From assembly GCA_963831005.1 (NCBI GenBank), contig CAWHOW010000045.1, forward strand, positions 9,878 to 73,877: DNA of 64,000 bases, given 5' to 3'. Under the pieces are notes generated by a model. The model saw only the letters and a list, made by a program, of their open reading frames with translations. It did not search any database and was not told the origin of the DNA. Position 1 is the first letter of the stretch. The number at the start of each line of letters is the position of its first letter. The position numbers were made by a program, and so were the translations under genes. Positions 3,353-63,991 of this stretch are shown in pieces. The DNA comes from an uncultured Bacteroidota bacterium (GTDB lineage Bacteria > Bacteroidota > Bacteroidia > Bacteroidales > CG2-30-32-10).

Positions 3353-3521
3353 TTTTTAGTTTTTATTTTTAATATTATAACTTGTTCTTTAACGAAGTTC
3401 TATGCTTTTATCCATTTAACTGTATTTGCTGAATACTTATGCAAAGTTAAGGATAAACAGGCAGGTGAACAAAATGATTATACCAATAATTAACAATAAT
3501 TTAGTAAATATTTAAGCAAAA

Positions 3522-3899
3522 CTGATGATTTGGTAGGCAATATTGAAGATAACTGAAACAACAATAATGATAATCTCTGCAAAAAGGATAACCCGACACT
3601 GATTGTTGATGATAACCACAGCTAATTTGATGATTACCGTAAAGTATTTGATGATAACCACCTGTAATTTGATAAATACCATACGGTAATTGATAAATAC
3701 TGTACGGTACTTAATGAATACTGTACGGTAATTGATAACAACCGTTCGGTACTTAATGAATACCGTTCGGTATTTGATGACAATAACTGCAAAAATGATA
3801 AATCGGCTTCAATTATTGATGACAACCGAAGCCGAATTGATAAATTACCACTGATTATTGATGACTATCGTTCGGTATTAAATAACAATAGCGCCATAC
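3522..3899. repeat. 21-bp-phased degenerate tandem array 1 (18 units, core TTGATGAtAAC)
   Basis: Units start at 3522, 3543 ... 3879 with exact 21-nt spacing and no indels. Examples: ttgatgataaccacagctaat, ttgatgattaccgtaaagtat, ttgataaatactgtacggtac. The core contains TGA TGA TAA, so all + frames are closed; the longest - ORF is 63 aa. Confidence 0.85.
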
Positions 3900-3920
3900 T
3901 TTAAAAATATGGCGCTATTG
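3886..3920. terminator. strong hairpin (13-bp stem), possible terminator
   Basis: caatagcgccata / tatggcgctattg around the loop ctttaaaaa, with modest T-rich sequence on both sides. It could terminate the minus-strand gene 4070..4741 or a plus-strand transcript of array 1. Confidence 0.45.
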
Positions 3921-3969
3921 TTTACGAATATATCTTAAAAAGAAATGAGTGTATTTAAACAGAAGCCTC

Positions 3970-4060
3970 CATTGCGAGCTTGAATCCGTCATTGCGAGGA
4001 GGAACGACGAAGCAATCTTATCAATGAATTAAAGATTGCTTCACTTCGTTCGCAATGACG
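3970..4060. repeat. REP-like palindrome, second copy of the cattgcgagg/gaagcaatc family
   Basis: cgtcattgcgaggaggaacgacgaagcaatc, a loop, then gattgcttcacttcgttcgcaatgacg. Shares about 30 nt almost exactly with 1764..1794. Confidence 0.8.
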
Positions 4061-4069
4061 ATAAAAAAT

Positions 4070-4741
4070 TTAGTTTACCCTTACATTAACACTTACTGTC
4101 CATGCAGTTCTGAGGCCATGGGTAAGCATCTGCCTGTTTTGAAAGTAATAAACAACTCCTGAAGTTAAGCCAGTCACGGTTTGTTTCTGTGTCCTGCTCG
4201 ATTCACATGGAATCCATGTTTTATTGTCCGTGCTCATTTGAAAATCATGAGGACCCGGGCCTTCGCCAACCAAATCAACAGTACCTGCAACAGTACCATT
4301 TTTAGCTGTACTCTTACGTTTACCTCCATTATTCTCATCTTTTGCTTTCATTCCCGCATCGTGGATTATTTCAAGTGCACTTGCCGGCGAAGCGTCAGCC
4401 AAAATCTGAACGTCGGCTTTCAATGCCCGAAGATTATCTTTAACATCATTCCATGAAGTGTTCCTGTCGGCAGTTGTCTTTGTCGGAGGCTTGGTTTTAG
4501 AAGCGGTCTGATTAGTAATAAGCGCTGCCAGGTTTGTTGCAAGCGTGGCAAGTTTAGCTGCCGAAGCCGAATAAACAGTGCTTGCCGACATTGAATTGTG
4601 AATGGTTCCGGCATACTCAATTAATGCCTGAACTTTTGTAGGCATATCAAGCACTACTATAACCCTTTTAATTACCACCTTAATTGGTTTCGAAATTGCG
4701 ATCAAAAAGATCACCCTGATTAATTTTGCTATTGTTTTCAT
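4070..4741 (-). CDS. hypothetical protein, N-terminal hydrophobic anchor and C-terminal FN3-like beta-sandwich
   Basis: 223-aa ORF. The C-terminus (MSTDNKTWIPCESS..QTVTGLTSGVVYYFQNR...WTVSVNV) looks FN3-like. An alternative ATG lies at 4645. The first about 33 codons are conserved with the small ORF at 39545. Confidence 0.6.
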   Translation of the reverse strand: MKTIAKLIRVIFLIAISKPIKVVIKRVIVVLDMPTKVQALIEYAGTIHNSMSASTVYSASAAKLATLATNLAALITNQTASKTKPPTKTTADRNTSWNDVKDNLRALKADVQILADASPASALEIIHDAGMKAKDENNGGKRKSTAKNGTVAGTVDLVGEGPGPHDFQMSTDNKTWIPCESSRTQKQTVTGLTSGVVYYFQNRQMLTHGLRTAWTVSVNVRVN

Positions 4742-19110: not shown

Positions 19111-19211
19111 GTAAATTGAAACAAATAACAAAAGGATTTTTTCCTGAAAAACGAGTAAATCAACAAGATGCAACAAAAGAATCCCATACCAAAGCAAGAG
19201 TATTCCGTCGC

Positions 19212-19841
19212 CTCGTCTGACATCACGCTCAGCTTGTTTAGTAAATTGGCCGCCTCGTCTAGCGTAACGACCACTTCATTAAGTACGATGCCCACGTCAT
19301 ATAGCGAGACGACCAACACGTTTTGCAAGACGCCCACATCGTTTAGTACGGTGTCCATATCATTGAGCAAAATGCCCATCTTGTTAAGCACGACGCCGAA
19401 AACATTTTACATGATGCCCGCATCATTGAGTATAATGACCACTTCGTGGAGTACGATGCCCGACTTGTTCGGCTCAATGTCCGACTATTTGAGCATGATA
19501 CCTACGTTATTGGTTATAAAGCCCGCATCATTTAGTGTAACTATCAAGTCGTTAAGTACGATGCCCGCTGTGTTCAGTATGGCGACCACCTCGTTGAGTA
19601 TGACGCCGTTCGCGTTGGGCACGACACCCATCACGTTTAGCATGATGCCCATCACGTTTAGCACAATGCCGAACACGTTTAGCACGACGCCCATCACGCT
19701 GAGCACGACGCCCATCACGTTGAGTATGACGCTCATCACGTTGAGTATGACGCTCATCACGTTGAGCACGACGCTCATCATGTTTAGCACGACGCCCATC
19801 ACGTTGAGCATGATGCCGAACACGTTGGGCGCGATACTAAA
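19212..19841 (+). repeat. 21-bp-phased degenerate tandem array 2 (30 units, consensus cacgttgagcacgacgcccat), embedded in open ORF 19168..19926
   Basis: Units at 19212 + 21n with no indels. The right-hand units are near-identical (19716 and 19737 are identical) and the left-hand units are strongly diverged. One + frame is open for 252 codons from ATG 19168, with heptads such as TPITLST. Confidence 0.9.
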
Positions 19842-19911
19842 CGACCCCGCCGTCGGGAAAATAGTGCCGGGCAAGCGGAACATTAACCTGAATTATTATT
19901 CACGAGTTATA

Positions 19912-20056
19912 AAATCTAAATTCTAATTTCTAAACTCTAAATGAATTCCAATGAACCAAATGCTAAATTTAAAACAACTTCAATTAATACTGTTTGAAAC
20001 ATTGAAATTTTGAATTTTAATATTGTTTAGGATTTAGAGCTTCGTTCTTAGGATTT
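19912..20056. repeat. long AT-rich imperfect palindromic element (ctaaat...atttag family), copy 1
   Basis: Left arm aaatctaaattctaatttctaaactctaaat, right arm tttaggatttagagcttcgttcttaggattt. Related to the element at 31012..31130. Confidence 0.7.
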
Positions 20057-20097: not shown

Positions 20098-20865
20098 ATG
20101 GCAAAAAAAGTTTTAAGTAGAAAGCTGATATTAACAGCAGATTTCACGGGCTTGACCCTTGAAGAAAAATTAACCAAGCAAGCCAACATGGCAAAAGCAC
20201 AGACAAATAACCCCCTGTTGGTGCCGGGTTTAAATCCTACTGCAGCAGCAGTGGAGGCGGATATTACAGCCCTTACCGACCCCATTTCTGGGCTGATACA
20301 CGAACGCGGCGTGATAAGGGCACAGGAAGAATCGCTTACTTTGGCAATAAATAAAGCCGAAACGGCTATTAAGGATATTATTGTGAGCCAGTGGATGCCC
20401 CAGACACAGACAGCGCTTACCGGCACAACTAATGCCGAAGTTAATGCAGCATTACTGCTGTTTGGTATTAAAGGGCAAACTTCGGGGCATACCCCGGTTA
20501 CAGTGGCAAGTTTATCCAAAACGGCTTCGAGCGCCCCTGTTATAGTAAAAATTGATATTGACGTGCATGGGCAGCATATACTGCATGTGCATAATAATAT
20601 CACGGGCAAAATAGGGCACCCGAAAGATGTGCTGAGGGTAGATATTTATGCACAAACGGGTGGCACTGCCCCTGCCAACCTTGCTGCTTTGGTTACCAAT
20701 GGGGGAGGATGGCTTGGCACAACCAAGCGCGGTAAATACATTAACCAGTTTACGGTAACCGCCGCCAACCAGGGAAAGGTGGAATACTATATAGCGGTAT
20801 ATATAGAAAAAGCTACAAAGAAACCGGGTGCGCAAAGCGTGCCCGAAAGCGCTATGATTGAATAA
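20098..20865 (+). CDS. hypothetical protein (helical N-terminal half, beta-sandwich-like C-terminal half)
   Basis: 255-aa ORF with ATG start. No family recognised. The architecture loosely resembles 4070..4741. Confidence 0.6.
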   Translation: MAKKVLSRKLILTADFTGLTLEEKLTKQANMAKAQTNNPLLVPGLNPTAAAVEADITALTDPISGLIHERGVIRAQEESLTLAINKAETAIKDIIVSQWMPQTQTALTGTTNAEVNAALLLFGIKGQTSGHTPVTVASLSKTASSAPVIVKIDIDVHGQHILHVHNNITGKIGHPKDVLRVDIYAQTGGTAPANLAALVTNGGGWLGTTKRGKYINQFTVTAANQGKVEYYIAVYIEKATKKPGAQSVPESAMIE

Positions 20866-27838: not shown

Positions 27839-28762
<924 letters not shown>

Positions 28763-28800
28763 GTTCATTAAGTTATAATAACAATTTAACAATTAAAGAT

Positions 28801-30564
28801 ATGAAAACAAAAATCTTAATTATCGTATTACTGGTAACCGTTTACCGTTTACTGATTACCGATTACTGTTTTGCTCAAAACAACGTAGGTATCAATACAT
28901 CGGGCTCAACGCCCAACAGTTCAGCCATACTCGATTTGAACACGGGCAATACTTTTACAAGCCCTAATGGTAAAGGATTACTGATACCGTGTATGAACAC
29001 AGCAAGTATGAATGCCATCGTTTCGCCTGTTAACGGTCTTATAATTTTTAATACCGATTGCGAAACAATAAATTATTACAACGGAACCACCTGGATTGCC
29101 ATTGGCAATGGAAGCGGCATATCAGCGCCAGGAGCTATCACAGGCAGCACATCACCGGCTTGCAATGCTACAGGCATTCCTTATTCCATTGCAGCGGTTA
29201 CAGGAGCAACCGGCTATAACTGGACAGTACCAACAGGTGCAACAGTAGCCACAGGACAGGGTACTACCGCCACCACGGTAAACTTCGGGGCTGTTTCGGG
29301 CAATGTATGCGTATCAGCAAGCAATGCCTGCGGAACAAGCGCACCTTCATGCGTTACAGTTACTCTTCCGGGACCTGCCCAACCCAGCGCTATAACAGGC
29401 ACAAGCCCTGTATGCCAGGGTGATAACGGGGATGCTTATTCAGTAACTAATGTAGGCGGGGTAACATATACATGGACATATTCTGGCACAGGTTATACAC
29501 AAGCTTCCGGCGGAACCACCAACTCTATTACTGCCAACTTTTCCGCCTCTGCCACTTCCGGCACACTTACCGTTACCCCAAGCAATGCCTGCGGCAGTGG
29601 TACACCACAAACCTTGGCTATTACGGTGAACGCCGTACCCGCAGCCCCCACAGCAGGAACTAATACACCCTCACAAACCCAGGTTGTATGGAATTGGAAC
29701 ACCTCCAGCGGAGCAACAGCCTATTACTATAATACAGTGAATAATTTTGGTACAGCCACCAGCAATGGGGCAAGTACTTCCTACACCCAAACAGGACTGA
29801 CCTGCAATACAGCTTATACCCTATATATATGGGCTTATAATAGTTGTGGAAATTCCACTGCCACTACATTAACACAAACCACTTCTGCTTGTTGTACACC
29901 AAGTGTTGTAACAATAAGCACGCTCACTCAAACAACCACATGTAATGGGACAAACACTATTGTAGCGTGGACTGGTTATGGTTCTACCACTTGGACTGTT
30001 CCCACCGGTGTAACCCTGGTTAATTACCTTGTTGTGGGCGGAGGTGGCGCTGCTGGAACCAGCCCGCCATGTTACTATGCTGGTGGTGGTGGTGGACAGG
30101 TTCTATCAGGAACATTAGCAGTATCTGGTAGTATAGCTTTAACAGTAGGGGCTGGAGGAACCGGAACGTCTTACGCAGGAAACCCGGGCGGGGTAAGTAG
30201 TTTCAGTTCAATATCTGCTTCTGGCGGACAAGGCGGACTATCTGGAGGTGCTACGGGAGGGACATGTGGCGATGGTGTGCATATCGGCGGTTCAGGAACA
30301 TGTAACCCAGGTGGTGGTGGTGGTGGTGGTGGTGCAAGTGCTAATGGCTCTAATGCACCCGGTGGTGGTATAGGTGGAGCAGGTGGGAATGGAGTGGCTT
30401 CGTCCATAACCGGGAGTTCGATTTATTACGGTGGTGGAGGTGAAGGTATTGGATCTACAGTAACAGGGAACGGGCCTGGTTTAGGGAGTATTGGTGGCGG
30501 CGGGTTTGCCGGTTCTCCCGGTTCAGGTGTAGGAAATTCTGGTACTGTAATAATATCGTATTAA
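28801..30564 (+). CDS. PKD-like / FN3 / glycine-rich-domain surface protein
   Basis: ATG 28801 gives a signal peptide. The N-terminal VGINTSGSTPNS..LLIP module is homologous to that of 27848..28762. Two PKD-like modules follow (ITG...C....Y.....G.T.Y.W), then an FN3-like segment and a GGGG-rich C-terminal domain (W.VP.GV..V.YLVVGGGGAAG). Confidence 0.75.
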   Translation: MKTKILIIVLLVTVYRLLITDYCFAQNNVGINTSGSTPNSSAILDLNTGNTFTSPNGKGLLIPCMNTASMNAIVSPVNGLIIFNTDCETINYYNGTTWIAIGNGSGISAPGAITGSTSPACNATGIPYSIAAVTGATGYNWTVPTGATVATGQGTTATTVNFGAVSGNVCVSASNACGTSAPSCVTVTLPGPAQPSAITGTSPVCQGDNGDAYSVTNVGGVTYTWTYSGTGYTQASGGTTNSITANFSASATSGTLTVTPSNACGSGTPQTLAITVNAVPAAPTAGTNTPSQTQVVWNWNTSSGATAYYYNTVNNFGTATSNGASTSYTQTGLTCNTAYTLYIWAYNSCGNSTATTLTQTTSACCTPSVVTISTLTQTTTCNGTNTIVAWTGYGSTTWTVPTGVTLVNYLVVGGGGAAGTSPPCYYAGGGGGQVLSGTLAVSGSIALTVGAGGTGTSYAGNPGGVSSFSSISASGGQGGLSGGATGGTCGDGVHIGGSGTCNPGGGGGGGGASANGSNAPGGGIGGAGGNGVASSITGSSIYYGGGGEGIGSTVTGNGPGLGSIGGGGFAGSPGSGVGNSGTVIISY

Positions 30565-38926: not shown

Positions 38927-39475
38927 GTTCACTCAGAAAAAGGGTACGTTCACCCAAAATTAGCATATGTTCACGAAGTTTAGTTGGTTTTCCTTGATTT
39001 CGCTGACGTTTTAATGTATTATTGTATCAAACAATCGTTCTTTAACATCCTGATGGTAGTACATTCCCCAAAGCAGGGAGCATTAATATCAGACGTACGT
39101 GTAGTAATTATATCCACGTGGGTAGTGTTTGTATCTACGTCTTCCTTTGCTGCTAGCACATCTTTCGTTACCAGAACTACGTTGTCAGTTACTGCAAAGA
39201 TAGCTTCATTAACAGGAGACAGGTCTTCAATAATGGAAGCTATGGCTTCAATAACTGCAGCTAAGGCTTCAGTAACTGCAAAGATGGCTTCAATAATGGC
39301 AGACAGGTCTTCCATAACTGATGCTACAACTTCAATAACTACAGCTATAATTTCAGTAACTGCGGCTATGACTTCAACAATTGCAGCTATGTCTTCAATC
39401 ACTGCCGCTGTACATACAACAACTGCCGCTATGGATAGCATAACTATTACGACCGCCAAAGATATTAATGTTGTG
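38927..39475 (+). repeat. 21-bp-phased degenerate tandem array 3 (about 26 units, consensus gcttcaataactgcagctaag)
   Basis: The best units lie at 39224..39412. Weak in-phase units run upstream as far as three GTTCAC motifs at 38927, 38948 and 38969 (spacing 21 and 21). The + ORF 38984..39502 (heptads ASITAAK, ASVTAKM) and a - ORF are both open. Confidence 0.85.
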
Positions 39476-39544
39476 ATTTACTGTAATATAACCATCGCTT
39501 AAGTAAAATTAATTAAAGTATTAACAATTAAAAAAACTAAAAAA

Positions 39545-39715
39545 ATGAAAGCAATTATGAAAATGAAGAAAGCCTGCGTAGCATGTGGGTTGGTGTTTGG
39601 TATAGTATTATTAACTATTGCCATAATACCAAAAGTAGTGATCAAAAGGGTCATAGCAGTACTGAATATGAAGAAGCTTAAGAAGGTAGGGGCTTTTGTT
39701 TACGATATCACTTAA
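39545..39715 (+). pseudogene. 56-aa ORF homologous to the N-terminal anchor of 4070..4741 (probable gene fragment or small membrane protein)
   Basis: IAIIPKVVIKRVIAVLNM compares with IAISKPIKVVIKRVIVVLDM in the 4070..4741 product. At DNA level gtagtgatcaaaagggtcatagcagtactgaatatg compares with gtggtaattaaaagggttatagtagtgcttgatatg. The ORF stops shortly afterwards. Confidence 0.5.
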
Positions 39716-39840
39716 CAAAGTTTTTAACTTTCACAATACTTCAGAGGTAAGATCGAAAAAAGTTATTTTTTTAGCAAAAGAGTATGATATCAACACAAAT
39801 ACTCTATATTATATCTAATTTATTGGTTTACAGTTTTTGT

Positions 39841-39871: not shown

Positions 39872-40822
39872 ATGAACAAAAGACTTATATTATTTTTTTC
39901 GATAATAATGATAAACTATTTTTCTTTCGGGCAAATAACAGATAAAGAGAAGGAGCTTCTTGCAAAAACTGCCGATACTCTTGATGGCTGGAAAACGGGC
40001 GGTACTTTTACATTTAATTTAAGCCAGCTTTCATTGACCAACTGGGCTGCAGGAGGGCAAAATTCTCTGGGAATTAATGCTCTGGTAAATGTCTTTGCCA
40101 ATTTAAAACATAAGAATTCGGAGTGGGACAATACGCTTGATATGGGTTATGGATTGATACACCAGGGCGGTAAATCCGAGACTTACCAGAAGAGCAACGA
40201 TAACTTCGAATTCAATTCCAAATACGGGCAGAAAGCTTCGAAAAGCTGGTTCTATGCCGCTTTGCTGAACTTTAAAACACAATTCGCACCCGGCTATAAT
40301 TACCCGAACGATAGTGTGAAGATATCCGATTTACTAGCTCCTGCTTACCTGATAGGTGCGTTAGGCATGGATTATAGACCAAATAATGTATTCGATTGTT
40401 TTATTGCGCCGGTTACGGGTAAATTGATAATTGTAAATAATACTACCCTTGCCAACACAGGCGATTTTGGTGTTACCAAGGCCGTTCTTAATGATTCAGG
40501 TAAAGTTATTACTCCCGGTAAGAAGACAAAATTTGAATTTGGCGGATACATTAGGACTTCTTTAACGAAAGACATTATGAAAAATGTTAATCTATATACA
40601 GAAGCAGACTTCTTCTCAAATTATTTACAGAACCCGCAAAACATTGTTGTCAACTGGCAAATGCTTATTTCAATGAAAGTGAATAAATTTATTGCAGCAA
40701 CTTTATCAGCGCAACTTATTTATGATGATAAAGCTAAAATAGTGATTGATTCGAAAGGTGATACAGGTCCCAGAACACAGTTTAAAGAATTGTTCGGAGT
40801 GGGATTTTCTTACAAGTTCTGA
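39872..40822 (+). CDS. DUF3078-like outer-membrane beta-barrel protein
   Basis: Signal peptide, W.TGG.F.FN.SQ.SL.NWAAGGQNS and a C-terminal aromatic residue (SYKF), as recalled for DUF3078. Confidence 0.65.
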   Translation: MNKRLILFFSIIMINYFSFGQITDKEKELLAKTADTLDGWKTGGTFTFNLSQLSLTNWAAGGQNSLGINALVNVFANLKHKNSEWDNTLDMGYGLIHQGGKSETYQKSNDNFEFNSKYGQKASKSWFYAALLNFKTQFAPGYNYPNDSVKISDLLAPAYLIGALGMDYRPNNVFDCFIAPVTGKLIIVNNTTLANTGDFGVTKAVLNDSGKVITPGKKTKFEFGGYIRTSLTKDIMKNVNLYTEADFFSNYLQNPQNIVVNWQMLISMKVNKFIAATLSAQLIYDDKAKIVIDSKGDTGPRTQFKELFGVGFSYKF

Positions 40823-54094: not shown

Positions 54095-54252
54095 GATATT
54101 ATTTACACAAGGGAGTATATAATATAGAAGGCTGCCAGGCTGCCAGACAAGGGTTTTTTAACATTTCACGGCGAGGCCGAACAGAAGAACAAGTTTCCCT
54201 CTATGTTTTGGCCTCCTCTTATTGGAATAAATCTTTTGCACCGGGGTTCATT

Positions 54253-54924
54253 GAAGTTTCTTTGAACAGTTCAGCAGTTGCTGGGAAGAGCTACGCATGT
54301 GCGTGGAAGAGTTCAGCAGTTTCTGCGAAGAGTTTAGCAATTGCCGCGGATGTCCACGCATGTGCCGGGAACAGTTTGGCAGTTGCCGCGAAGAGTTTAG
54401 CAGTCTCCGCGAAGGTCGTGGCAGTTGCCGCGAAGATCGTGGCGGTTGCCGCGAACAGTTTGGCGGTTGCCGCGAAGAGTTTGGCTGTTGCCGCGAAGAG
54501 TTTGGCAATTGCAGCGAACAGTTTGGCGGTTGCCGCGAAGAGTTTGGCAGTTGCCGCGAAGATCGTGGCGGTTGCCGCGAACAGTTTAGCATGTGTGTGG
54601 AACAGTTCAGCAGTTGCTGGGAAGAGCTACGCATGTGCGTGGAAGAGTTCAGCAGTTTCTGCGAAGAGTTTAGCAATTGCCGCGGATGTCCACGCATGTG
54701 CGTGGAACAGTTTGGCAGTTGCCGCGAAGAGTTATCCCTGTGCGTGGAACAGTTTAGCAATTGCTGCGAAGAGTTATCCCTATGCGTGGAAGAGCTACGC
54801 ATGTGCGTGCAAGAGTTATCCCTGTGCGTGGAAGAGTTTGGCCGTTGCCGCGAAGAGCCACGCATGTGCGTGGAAGAGTTCCCCCTGTGCGTGGAACAGT
54901 TTGGCAATTGCCACGAGGAGTATT
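54253..54924 (+). repeat. 21-bp-phased degenerate tandem array 4 (32 units; subtypes gcagttgccgcgaagagtttg and gcatgtgcgtggaagagttca)
   Basis: Units at 54253 + 21n with no indels. The 102-nt block 54264..54365 is repeated exactly at 54600..54701, an offset of 336 bp or 16 units. Two + frames and one - frame stay open for more than 215 codons. Confidence 0.9.
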
Positions 54925-55181
54925 GCAGAGGACAAATTTTCTATACTTATATATTAAACTTTGCTTGGTTTTTCCTCAAAATTAGTTGCTTTGTCCTCAA
55001 AATTAATACCCGAAATGGATAAATAAACAGGCTTTCCTGATAAAGGGTATGCCAGTAACAATGCGGAAGGTGAAAAATGGAAAACCGGATATGCACGAAT
55101 GAATAGGAAGCAGGAGTCAGAAGGCAACGTTCAGTCAACAACGAAAATAAAATTGGAAACTGCGGACTGAAGACTGAAAAA

Positions 55182-63541: not shown

Positions 63542-63991
63542 ATGGAAGTTATACTAAAACAAGACATAAATAACCTCGGATATAAAAACGACGTTATCAA
63601 GGTAAAGAATGGCTATGGCAGAAATTACCTTATCCCAAAAGGATTGGCAATTACAGCTACTGAAACAAATAAGAAGATTGTTACAGAAACACAGAAGCAG
63701 AGAGCTTTTAAAGATGAGAAGATCAAGAAAGAAGCTCAGAAAATTGCTGATGCATTACAGAATATTTCATTGAAGATAGGCGCTAAAGCAGGAACATCAG
63801 GTAAAATATTCGGTTCGGTAAATGCTCTCCAAATAGCCGATGCTATTCAGAAACAATTCAATTATGAGATCGACCGTAAGAAGATAATCGTTGACGGTGA
63901 TGCAATAAAAGAACTGGGAATGTATACTGCAAAAGTTAACCTTCATAAAGAAATAAAACTTGAAGTGAAATTTGAAGTAGTAGCTGAATAA
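63542..63991 (+). CDS. rplI: 50S ribosomal protein L9
   Basis: MEVILKQDI.NLG.K.D...VK.GY.RNYLIP.G.A..AT; conserved S6-S18-L9 gene order. Confidence 0.95.
   Translation: MEVILKQDINNLGYKNDVIKVKNGYGRNYLIPKGLAITATETNKKIVTETQKQRAFKDEKIKKEAQKIADALQNISLKIGAKAGTSGKIFGSVNALQIADAIQKQFNYEIDRKKIIVDGDAIKELGMYTAKVNLHKEIKLEVKFEVVAE

Follow-up and report, generated by a model that had tools for sequence, protein, structure and literature searches.

The window analysed here, a stretch of 64,000 nucleotides from the genome of an uncultured Bacteroidota bacterium, contains two genes and one short open reading frame (ORF) that lie beside arrays of tandem 21-bp units. The first gene (4070-4741, minus strand) encodes a protein of 223 amino acids (aa), and the second (20098-20865, plus strand) a protein of 255 aa that represents a probable sister family. 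The ORF (39545-39715, plus strand) encodes only 56 aa, shares an N-terminal segment with the 223-aa protein and is the remnant of another gene of the same family. The arrays were located by an autocorrelation scan of the 64 kb at a lag of 21 nt and with Tandem Repeats Finder (TRF). Exactly four lag-21 arrays were found in the window, three of them beside family genes; the autocorrelation scan placed them at 3571-3865, 19195-19909, 39082-39502 and 54223-55000.

Array 1 (3565-3880, minus strand) consists of about 15 units of 21 bp, has stops in all six frames and is located about 190 bp from the stop codon of the 223-aa gene. Its units are composed of a palindromic box AATACCGTACGGTATT or an inverted pair CGGCTTCG/TGAAGCCG, plus a [TC]ATCA linker. 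An intrinsic terminator hairpin (3880-3920, minus strand; CAATAGCGCCATA...TATGGCGCTATTG followed by TTATTT) is situated between the gene and the array. Array 2 (19195-19850, plus strand; about 31 units with the consensus CACGTTGAGCACGACGCCCAT) lies upstream of the 255-aa gene, about 250 bp from its ATG. Array 3 (39082-39460, plus strand; about 18 units with the consensus CTTCAATAACTGCAGCTATGG) lies downstream of alaS and directly upstream of the 56-aa ORF, about 85 bp from its ATG, and its dyad symmetry has a z-score of 3.4. The statement of the initial annotation that three of the four arrays have such a neighbour within about 250 bp was thereby confirmed. Array 4 (54223-54960, no strand assigned; about 35 units) is an orphan flanked by a gene for a TonB-dependent receptor and by ribE. 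A six-frame hmmsearch revealed no family gene or remnant beside array 4 and no fourth family gene elsewhere in the window; a weak six-frame match at 63542-63991 was ribosomal protein L9. The lag-21 scan showed no array upstream of the 223-aa gene and none downstream of the 255-aa gene.

The longest of the four, array 4, is built from GAAGAGTT plus GCAATTGC or ACGCATGTGCGT boxes, in a unit resembling that of array 2 (GTT.AGCA....GCC). A palindromic element similar to repetitive extragenic palindromes (REP) was observed at 3975-4060 (gtcattgcgagg...gaagcaatc / gattgcttc...cgcaatgac), between the stop codon of the 223-aa gene and the terminator. This element is distinct from the 21-bp array and is identical in a strain whose protein is 98% identical to the 223-aa protein (locus L002).

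Linkage of genes and arrays in related loci

In nearly every lineage examined, the family genes were found to be physically coupled to a private array that is non-coding and composed of about 10-35 tandem units of exactly 21 bp. In 64 related loci (305 kb, partly redundant), 55 arrays were located at most 300 bp from a family gene, and the other five were all located within 800 bp. The suggested co-occurrence of the family with lag-21 arrays was borne out by these loci, and they refute the reservation, made in the initial annotation, that the two may be co-located by coincidence in accessory DNA.

In the clade of the 223-aa protein, a single array was observed shortly after the 3' end of the gene at each of the loci L001-L006, whose proteins are 79% (L001), 98% (L002), 59% (L003-5) and 37% (L006, a Bacteroidia metagenome-assembled genome, MAG) identical to the 223-aa protein. 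When metagenomes were scanned with a clade sharing about 40% identity with the 223-aa protein of the window, 47 loci with 42 arrays were obtained, duplicates counted once. These arrays start about 35-110 nt after the stop codon, with the exception of a few whose detection window overlaps it. Less than 140 nt of sequence follows the stop codon in four of the five loci lacking an array, and the remaining one, L056, is the sole locus with room for an array but without one. The L056 gene (1154-1792) is P0141-like and belongs to a divergent branch, with 33% identity to the A7 clade used as query, and no array of lag 21, 42 or 63 was found on either side of it. Not every member of the superfamily is therefore linked to an array. 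Stop codon and array are separated by a strong hairpin with a T-tract in 28 of 32 loci, among them that of the window's 223-aa gene, where the hairpin is located at 3886-3920. Arrays of the 223-aa type are thus predicted to lie outside the mRNA, beyond the terminator of the gene.

A second placement was found in the 255-aa family, in which the array is located upstream of the gene, 20-250 nt from the ATG, in seven lineages (the window, L007, L008, L009 with a degenerate array, L059 with a 63-nt super-period, L061 and L062). The lineage of the 56-aa ORF also has its array upstream; besides array 3, an array at 3396-3962 of locus L058 lies 40 nt upstream of the orthologous ATG. The orientations do differ between the arrays, as had been remarked for the window, but they are not haphazard. 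Placement follows a clade-specific rule, with the order gene-terminator-array in the 223-aa clades and, both in the 255-aa family and in the lineage of the 56-aa ORF, an array at the start codon. The other neighbours of these gene-array modules are not conserved, and no gene for a partner NTPase (ParA, ParM, TubZ) was found next to any module.

At three loci a second lag-21 array was observed past the first, 600-770 bp downstream of the gene (L013, 2241-2492; L014, 3389-3633; L015, 2220-2639).

Composition and turnover of the arrays

The best autocorrelation lag was 21 in 42 of 42 arrays, and the consensus units were unrelated between lineages. The size range was narrow, mostly about 140-480 bp. 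A typical unit is composed of an AT-rich part ([CG]AAGG..., ...TTAT) and a short palindrome, for example AATACCGTACGGTATT in array 1 or ATTGCTAGCAAT, GATCGTACGATC, TGTGGTTCCACA and AAGGAT-N6-ATCCTT in other arrays. Dyad symmetry of the unit was significant in 21 of 36 arrays, with about two expected by chance. The geometry of the inverted repeats varies and may be 8+8, 5+2+5 or 6+6+6, or the inversion may involve neighbouring units.

The arrays are non-coding. Stops in all six frames closed 23 of the 42 arrays, and array 1 of the window has at least two stops in each frame. Orthologous arrays have no open strand or frame in common, and three-periodicity of their variability was weak or absent. 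The period of 21 nt corresponds to seven codons, and it could be proposed that the arrays encode heptad-repeat proteins coexpressed with the neighbouring gene, such as the 252-aa product of the ORF at 19168-19926 with its T[FL]STTPI repeats. A period that is a multiple of three, the frequent placement of ORFs on the arrays by gene callers, and the open frame with an ATG across all 31 units of array 2 would fit such a proposal. Heptad coding is nevertheless refuted for most arrays by the closed and unshared frames and the poor three-periodicity, the called ORFs have no Pfam match, and as an explanation of the arrays it is extremely improbable.

Gene callers routinely predict "hypothetical proteins" of 70-250 aa on the arrays, on either strand, and these are likely to be annotation artefacts. 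In the window such ORFs were called at 19168-19926, 38984-39502 and 54208-54957, and others were called in L001-L008 and L059-L064. A whole class of spurious heptad-repeat "hypothetical proteins" in Bacteroidia MAGs would be accounted for by the module.

Arrays of the 223-aa type were strongly self-complementary compared with shuffled sequences (z -4 to -10), and arrays of the 255-aa type only weakly so (z -1 to -3). Mutually complementary boxes alternate in L006 (CCTCACA/TGTGAGG), in array 1 and in L002, and in some arrays the end units have a box with inverted central bases, which gives perfect 12-bp pairings there. An explanation for these features could be that the arrays work as hairpins, either transcribed into RNA, by read-through or from a promoter of their own, or as single-stranded DNA, in which stem-loops display the AT-rich motif and the protein binds to them or is regulated by them, as on a sponge or scaffold. 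The neighbouring units in array 1 and L002 (CGGCTTCG/TGAAGCCG) and in L006, which are complementary to each other and not self-palindromic, point in this direction, as do the pairings of the end units and growth by 42-nt double units. Transcription of the arrays is however opposed by the strong intrinsic terminator that precedes them in 28 of 32 loci. Folding is about as good on one strand as on the other, any strand bias is inconsistent, and the weak folding of the 255-aa type is not expected from a hairpin function. Many boxes are perfect palindromes with a loop of 0 or 2 nt and are unable to form hairpins alone, the exact period of 21 has no obvious rationale in RNA, and no covariance model of Rfam 15 matched at gathering score in the whole window. 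A hairpin function was therefore considered unlikely.

The arrays gain and lose whole units, and their divergence accompanies that of the protein and outpaces that of the flanking genes. Compared with the window, the array of L002 contains three extra 42-nt double units (126 nt; window 3803-3846, L002 6898-7077), and apart from this indel, about 670 aligned bases of the window and this 98%-identical relative showed no real difference. Array similarity tracked protein identity (Spearman 0.27, p 3e-6), with units shared only above about 75-85% protein identity. L025 and L031/L032 occupy the same chromosomal site, as seen from a 352-aa oxidoreductase with 94.9% aa identity and from CorA, and yet their module proteins are only 66.8% identical and their array units unrelated. 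This suggests that the module either was exchanged by allele replacement or co-diverges rapidly.

Such turnover could also be expected of minisatellites without function, either selfish or mutational in origin, which arise by slippage at a sequence associated with the family (the terminator, for example) or travel with the gene in a mobile cassette. The polymorphic copy number between strains, the orphan array and some decayed genes, the variable genomic context and the divergence of the modules ahead of their flanks all agree with this explanation. Slippage leaves unexplained, however, why a 21-bp period is found with unrelated units in 42 of 42 arrays, why the size range is narrow and why dyad symmetry recurs. 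It does not account for the retention of arrays beside proteins of 33-45% identity or for the second conserved placement, upstream of the gene, in the sister family, and no transposase, terminal repeats, or phage or plasmid matches were found that would indicate a mobile cassette. An origin as functionless minisatellites is on balance quite improbable.

The protein family and the 56-aa ORF

The products of the ORF at 39545-39715(+) and the gene at 4070-4741(-) have in common MK.I, a hydrophobic stretch and the motif KVVIKRVI.VL.M. The ORF encodes MKAIMKMKKACVACGLVFGIVLLTIAIIPKVVIKRVIAVLNMKKLKKVGAFVYDIT and the product of the gene starts with MKTIAKLIRVIFLIAISKPIKVVIKRVIVVLDMPTKVQALIEYAG. A back-translated pattern of KVVIKRVI had two exact matches in the 64 kb, at 4659-4681(-) and 39632-39654(+), with 0.06 expected. 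At the nucleotide level, 30 of 39 bases are identical between 39632-39670(+) of the ORF (K30-M42) and 4643-4681(-) of the gene (K21-M33), and both stretches end with an ATG (M42, M33). The shared hydrophobic segment with its motif and the identity of about 36 nt ending at an ATG, both noticed in the initial annotation, are therefore real. About 45 AT-rich bases upstream of both start codons can also be aligned, weakly.

The nature of the 39-nt stretch turned out to be different from that proposed. Of the nine differences, seven are synonymous changes at third positions and two are conservative replacements (A/V, N/D). The terminal ATG is not conserved, since homologues have NFP, AFP, KFP or DVP, with an F or V codon at this position, and the indels in the N-terminal extension of homologues (+2 aa, +9 aa) are in frame. 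These observations indicate that the stretch is coding sequence under protein selection, and they refute a 5' untranslated region (UTR) or RNA leader. The shared segment forms the 5' ends of two paralogues that belong to an undescribed gene family.

Among 5.8 billion clustered proteins, 14 were closely related to the 223-aa protein; all are unnamed and lack Pfam domains, and the N-terminal segment is kept in every full-length close relative. Of 1.84 billion representatives searched with a profile, 1633 matched at E <= 1e-3, including 753 at E <= 1e-10; among the matches are giant multi-Fn3 proteins that align in the C-terminal part only. Only one relative was found in the GTDB representative genomes. 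Family members are basic proteins of about 205-255 aa in which a beta-strand precedes a four-helix bundle and an Fn3-type sandwich. The median isoelectric point (pI) was 9.65 for the 223-aa family and 9.37 for the 255-aa family, and the calculated pI of the 223-aa protein was 9.9. Typical full-length members have 200-210 aa and start right at the motif, e.g. M..TIIKRIIAVLMFP. The family motif was defined as [IV][IV]K[RQH][VIL][IL]A[VA]L.[FM]P followed by a helix F[IV].[YK]A..I...M.

An AlphaFold2 model of the 223-aa protein, based on an alignment of 31 sequences, had a predicted local distance difference test score (pLDDT) of 90.6; an earlier model from 11 sequences (pLDDT 60) was set aside as too poor. 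The N-terminal extension (residues 1-20) was modelled with low confidence (50-61). It is followed by a beta-strand at residues 27-30 (RVIV), four helices (37-53, 55-81, 90-117 and 119-128) that form a bundle at 37-128, and a beta-sandwich at 132-221. According to this model KVVIKRVI.VL is the first structural beta-strand of the family fold.

The C-terminal 90 residues or so were assigned to Fn3 (PF00041), with a seven-strand sandwich, a W in strand B and Y.F in strand F. Foldseek against PDB gave 36 matches at E <= 1e-3, all Fn3, with probability 1.0 and TM-scores of up to 0.69 normalised on the target. The Fn3 domains of titin and gp130 were found by hmmsearch against PDB (E 1.7e-5 to 3e-4), and Pfam fn3 was matched by five of 31 family members. 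No match to the helical domain was found in PDB or Pfam, as Foldseek (PDB, BFVD) and hmmsearch (PDB) gave Fn3 only. The family differs from other Fn3 proteins in the fusion of the domain to this unmatched strand and four-helix bundle, in being basic and in the lack of a signal peptide in most members. Searches with the 223-aa and 255-aa proteins gave nothing beyond Fn3 in Pfam, NCBIfam and PHROGs and no meaningful PADLOC match; tblastn against phage and plasmid collections gave no match, and IMG/VR contained no relative.

A ribbon-helix-helix (RHH) fold as in ParR, ParG and omega was also considered for the N-terminal part and rejected; the strand is mostly hydrophobic (RVIVVL), the helices of 17-28 residues are part of a four-helix bundle, and no RHH Pfam match was found among the family proteins.

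The hydrophobic extension of 17-28 residues before the strand is clade-specific, and most family members lack it. In the 223-aa protein it contains an 11-residue hydrophobic run broken by R9, and in the 56-aa product a run of 19 residues; by inspection neither has a lipobox. The initial annotation had named the shared segment, KVVIKRVI.VL included, an N-terminal anchor or leader and had proposed checking for a 5' UTR or leader. On such a reading, a self-contained membrane anchor, secretion leader or 5' UTR leader would link the genes to the arrays. In favour of this, hydrophobic residues precede the strand and lysines are present at the N-terminus (MKTIAKLIRVIFLIAIS; 56-aa product MKAIMKMKKACVACGLVFGIVLLTIAII), and some homologues have possible cleavage sites of the S-I-A|K type. 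Most members, however, keep their array without having the extension, and the 255-aa family has arrays although it has no hydrophobic extension at all. KVVIKRVI is confidently modelled as a beta-strand, stands at the very N-terminus of most of the members of about 200 aa, and can be rejected as an anchor or leader. Together with the synonymous substitutions and the unconserved ATG, this largely refutes a leader for the 39-nt motif, and a leader as the link between genes and arrays is very unlikely. Only the 17-28 hydrophobic residues before the strand could, from their sequence, be a membrane anchor or a signal peptide. The leader is itself ordinary, namely that of a paralogue and its decayed copy, and the value of the observation is in the conserved gene-array module behind it.

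The 56-aa ORF agrees with the family motif (KVVIKRVIAVLNM followed by KKVGAFV). It retains the start codon, a 28-residue hydrophobic extension, the KVVIKRVIAVLNM strand and the beginning of helix 1, and it ends after 56 codons, so that the complete bundle and the Fn3 domain (about 200 aa) are absent. BLASTP between the 56-aa and 223-aa products gave E = 34, which is by itself not significant, and homology was therefore established by means of the orthologue P0225 from locus L058. P0225 is 88% identical to the 56-aa product and is 96 aa long, up to the end of its contig. It reads on into the helical domain (...KIGNFINKASFIVKSMTGNSWFPSPPITIAALLADIANLVAAETAA) and matched the family profile at residues 24-94 (hhalign 98.3%, E 1.1e-14). 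The DNA of the window and L058 is 90% identical over 39492-39680, followed by indels and by a faint out-of-frame similarity up to about 39765. In this out-of-frame tail (39716-39765, plus strand), TFHNTSE resembles the family TIHNSMS, and GTAAGATC resembles GTAAAATC of L058. The remainder of the gene past about 39765 is deleted, and unrelated DNA continues up to a DUF3078 gene at 39872. Since P0225 continues into the helical domain and the window DNA breaks down through indels, the sequence identifies the ORF as a frameshifted, 3'-deleted pseudogene of another paralogue, in line with the earlier suggestion that it is a truncated copy of the gene type at 4070-4741. The 56-aa form was found in at least two assemblies.

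Family genes were also frameshifted in L052 (2501-3112) and L055 (2501-3133), which could be pseudogenes or assembly errors; the arrays downstream of them are intact.

The 255-aa protein has 59 relatives and no Pfam match. A probable remote kinship with the 223-aa family was indicated when the two profiles were compared, a check that the initial annotation had proposed. The hhalign probability was 81% (E 1.2e-5) over 103 columns, all of them in the N-terminal strand and the helices; in this alignment MAKKVLSRKLILTADFTG falls on KPIKVVIKRVIVVLDMP and the helices after it, and the N-terminal strand KKVLSRKLILTADF of the window protein aligns with KVVIKRVIVVLDMP. The C-terminal halves, i.e. the sandwiches, do not align, and BLASTP between the 255-aa and 223-aa proteins gave E 0.056. 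A distant relationship between the two families is thus probable, not proven.

A weak and non-significant resemblance of the 255-aa family to TALE repeats in PDB (profile positions 140-198; Hax3, dTale2; E 0.12-0.8) was treated as noise. In L062-L064 (4000-5700), the 255-aa module is located 0.8 kb upstream of genes of defence type, GmrSD_N and HEPN_RiboL-PSP, which were not seen at the other loci. In the 250 nt that separate array 2 from the 255-aa gene, mini-repeats of 7 nt (TAAATTC; 19910-19942) and 8 nt (TTTGAAAT; 19993-20018) were observed; this may be the promoter region.

Possible function of the modules

Our best guess, with a probability of about 0.4, is that the array is a platform of double-stranded DNA to which the adjacent basic protein would bind, each array being private to its own gene. 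This reading is based on the basic pI, the strict period of two helical turns, the dyad-symmetric cores, the gene-private sequence, and the placement after the gene or over its promoter. A short dyad-symmetric site every two helical turns would bring many copies of the protein onto one face of the DNA, and the resulting nucleoprotein array would be of the centromere or iteron type. An upstream array would additionally permit autoregulation. In the clade of the 223-aa protein, the hydrophobic N-terminal extension could tether the complex of protein and array to the membrane.

Several observations weigh against a DNA-binding platform. A recognised DNA-binding domain was not found, and the helical domain is without a PDB or Pfam match. 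Fn3 domains are usually protein-binding and often extracytoplasmic, and a Sec signal is one possible reading of the hydrophobic N-terminus in the clade of the 223-aa protein, in which case the protein would be extracellular. The dyad geometry differs between arrays, and homologous dimers normally keep the spacing of their half-sites; arrays of the 255-aa type have little dyad symmetry at all. Array 4 has no gene beside it and the L056 gene has no array, and neither a partner NTPase gene nor a conserved neighbour accompanies the modules. Shared descent alone can explain the co-divergence of arrays and proteins.

Among known systems, the plasmid partition centromeres appear to be nearest. In R1 and pSK41, parC is located upstream of parMR. 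The closest parallel to the module would be sopC of F, located downstream of sopB, with 12 direct 43-bp repeats that each contain a 16-bp inverted repeat (PMC3177203). The modules resemble partition centromeres in the tandem direct repeats with a dyad-symmetric core right beside one specific gene, in the placement downstream or upstream over the promoter, in the system-specific repeat and in the helix-phased spacing. They differ in having no gene for a ParA, ParM or TubZ NTPase and no helix-turn-helix, RHH or ParB domain in the protein. Unlike partition loci, they are chromosomal and multi-copy (three modules and an orphan array in 64 kb), a terminator separates gene and array in the 223-aa type, and DNA binding by the protein is putative.

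Iterons of theta plasmids (P1 oriR-repA-incA, R6K) are repeats of 17-22 bp spaced at about 21-22 bp and flanking the rep gene. The period of about two helical turns, the location of arrays on either side of the cognate gene and the variable repeat number are similar. The modules, however, have 10-35 units compared to 3-9 and their units are often palindromic, which those of iterons are not; no winged-helix Rep protein and no replicon context were found at the modules. REP and bacterial interspersed mosaic elements (BIME) of Proteobacteria are palindromic units of alternating orientation after the 3' ends of genes. Short imperfect palindromes after terminators, sometimes in alternating orientation and variable in copy number, are common to both, but the arrays, unlike a single repeat spread over the whole genome, accompany one particular gene family; each has a unit of its own and a strict period of 21 bp, and no RAYT transposase was seen. 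The arrays also differ from clustered regularly interspaced short palindromic repeats (CRISPR), as the 21-bp units are arranged head to tail without unique spacers, and neither cas genes nor a PADLOC match were found.

The module of a cognate protein and a tandem array of sites would thus be nearest to the centromere and iteron types. To our knowledge, pairing of a conserved bacterial gene with a non-coding satellite is rare, and the known cases, centromeres, iterons and CRISPR, are each a distinct machine. No relevant report emerged from literature searches on 21-bp repeats, tandem arrays and Fn3 in Bacteroidota. The gene-array pairing appears to be unreported and the protein family, which comprises hundreds of clusters at 50% identity, is undescribed and has no Pfam, NCBIfam, PHROG or PADLOC name.

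A more specific proposal, which is possible but rather doubtful, is that these are chromosomal protein-satellite modules of a new kind. An unseen DNA-binding architecture of strand, four-helix bundle and Fn3 domain would polymerise on its own phased 21-bp dyad array, and protein and array would diversify together as private specificity pairs. If this were true, the several pairs in one genome could be tethers between DNA and membrane or between DNA and DNA, insulators or self-marking loci.

Elsewhere in the window, collagen-like Gly-X-Thr triplets (period 9, 27, 36 and 45 nt) were observed at 28147-28528, within the ORFs 27848-28762 and 28753-30564.

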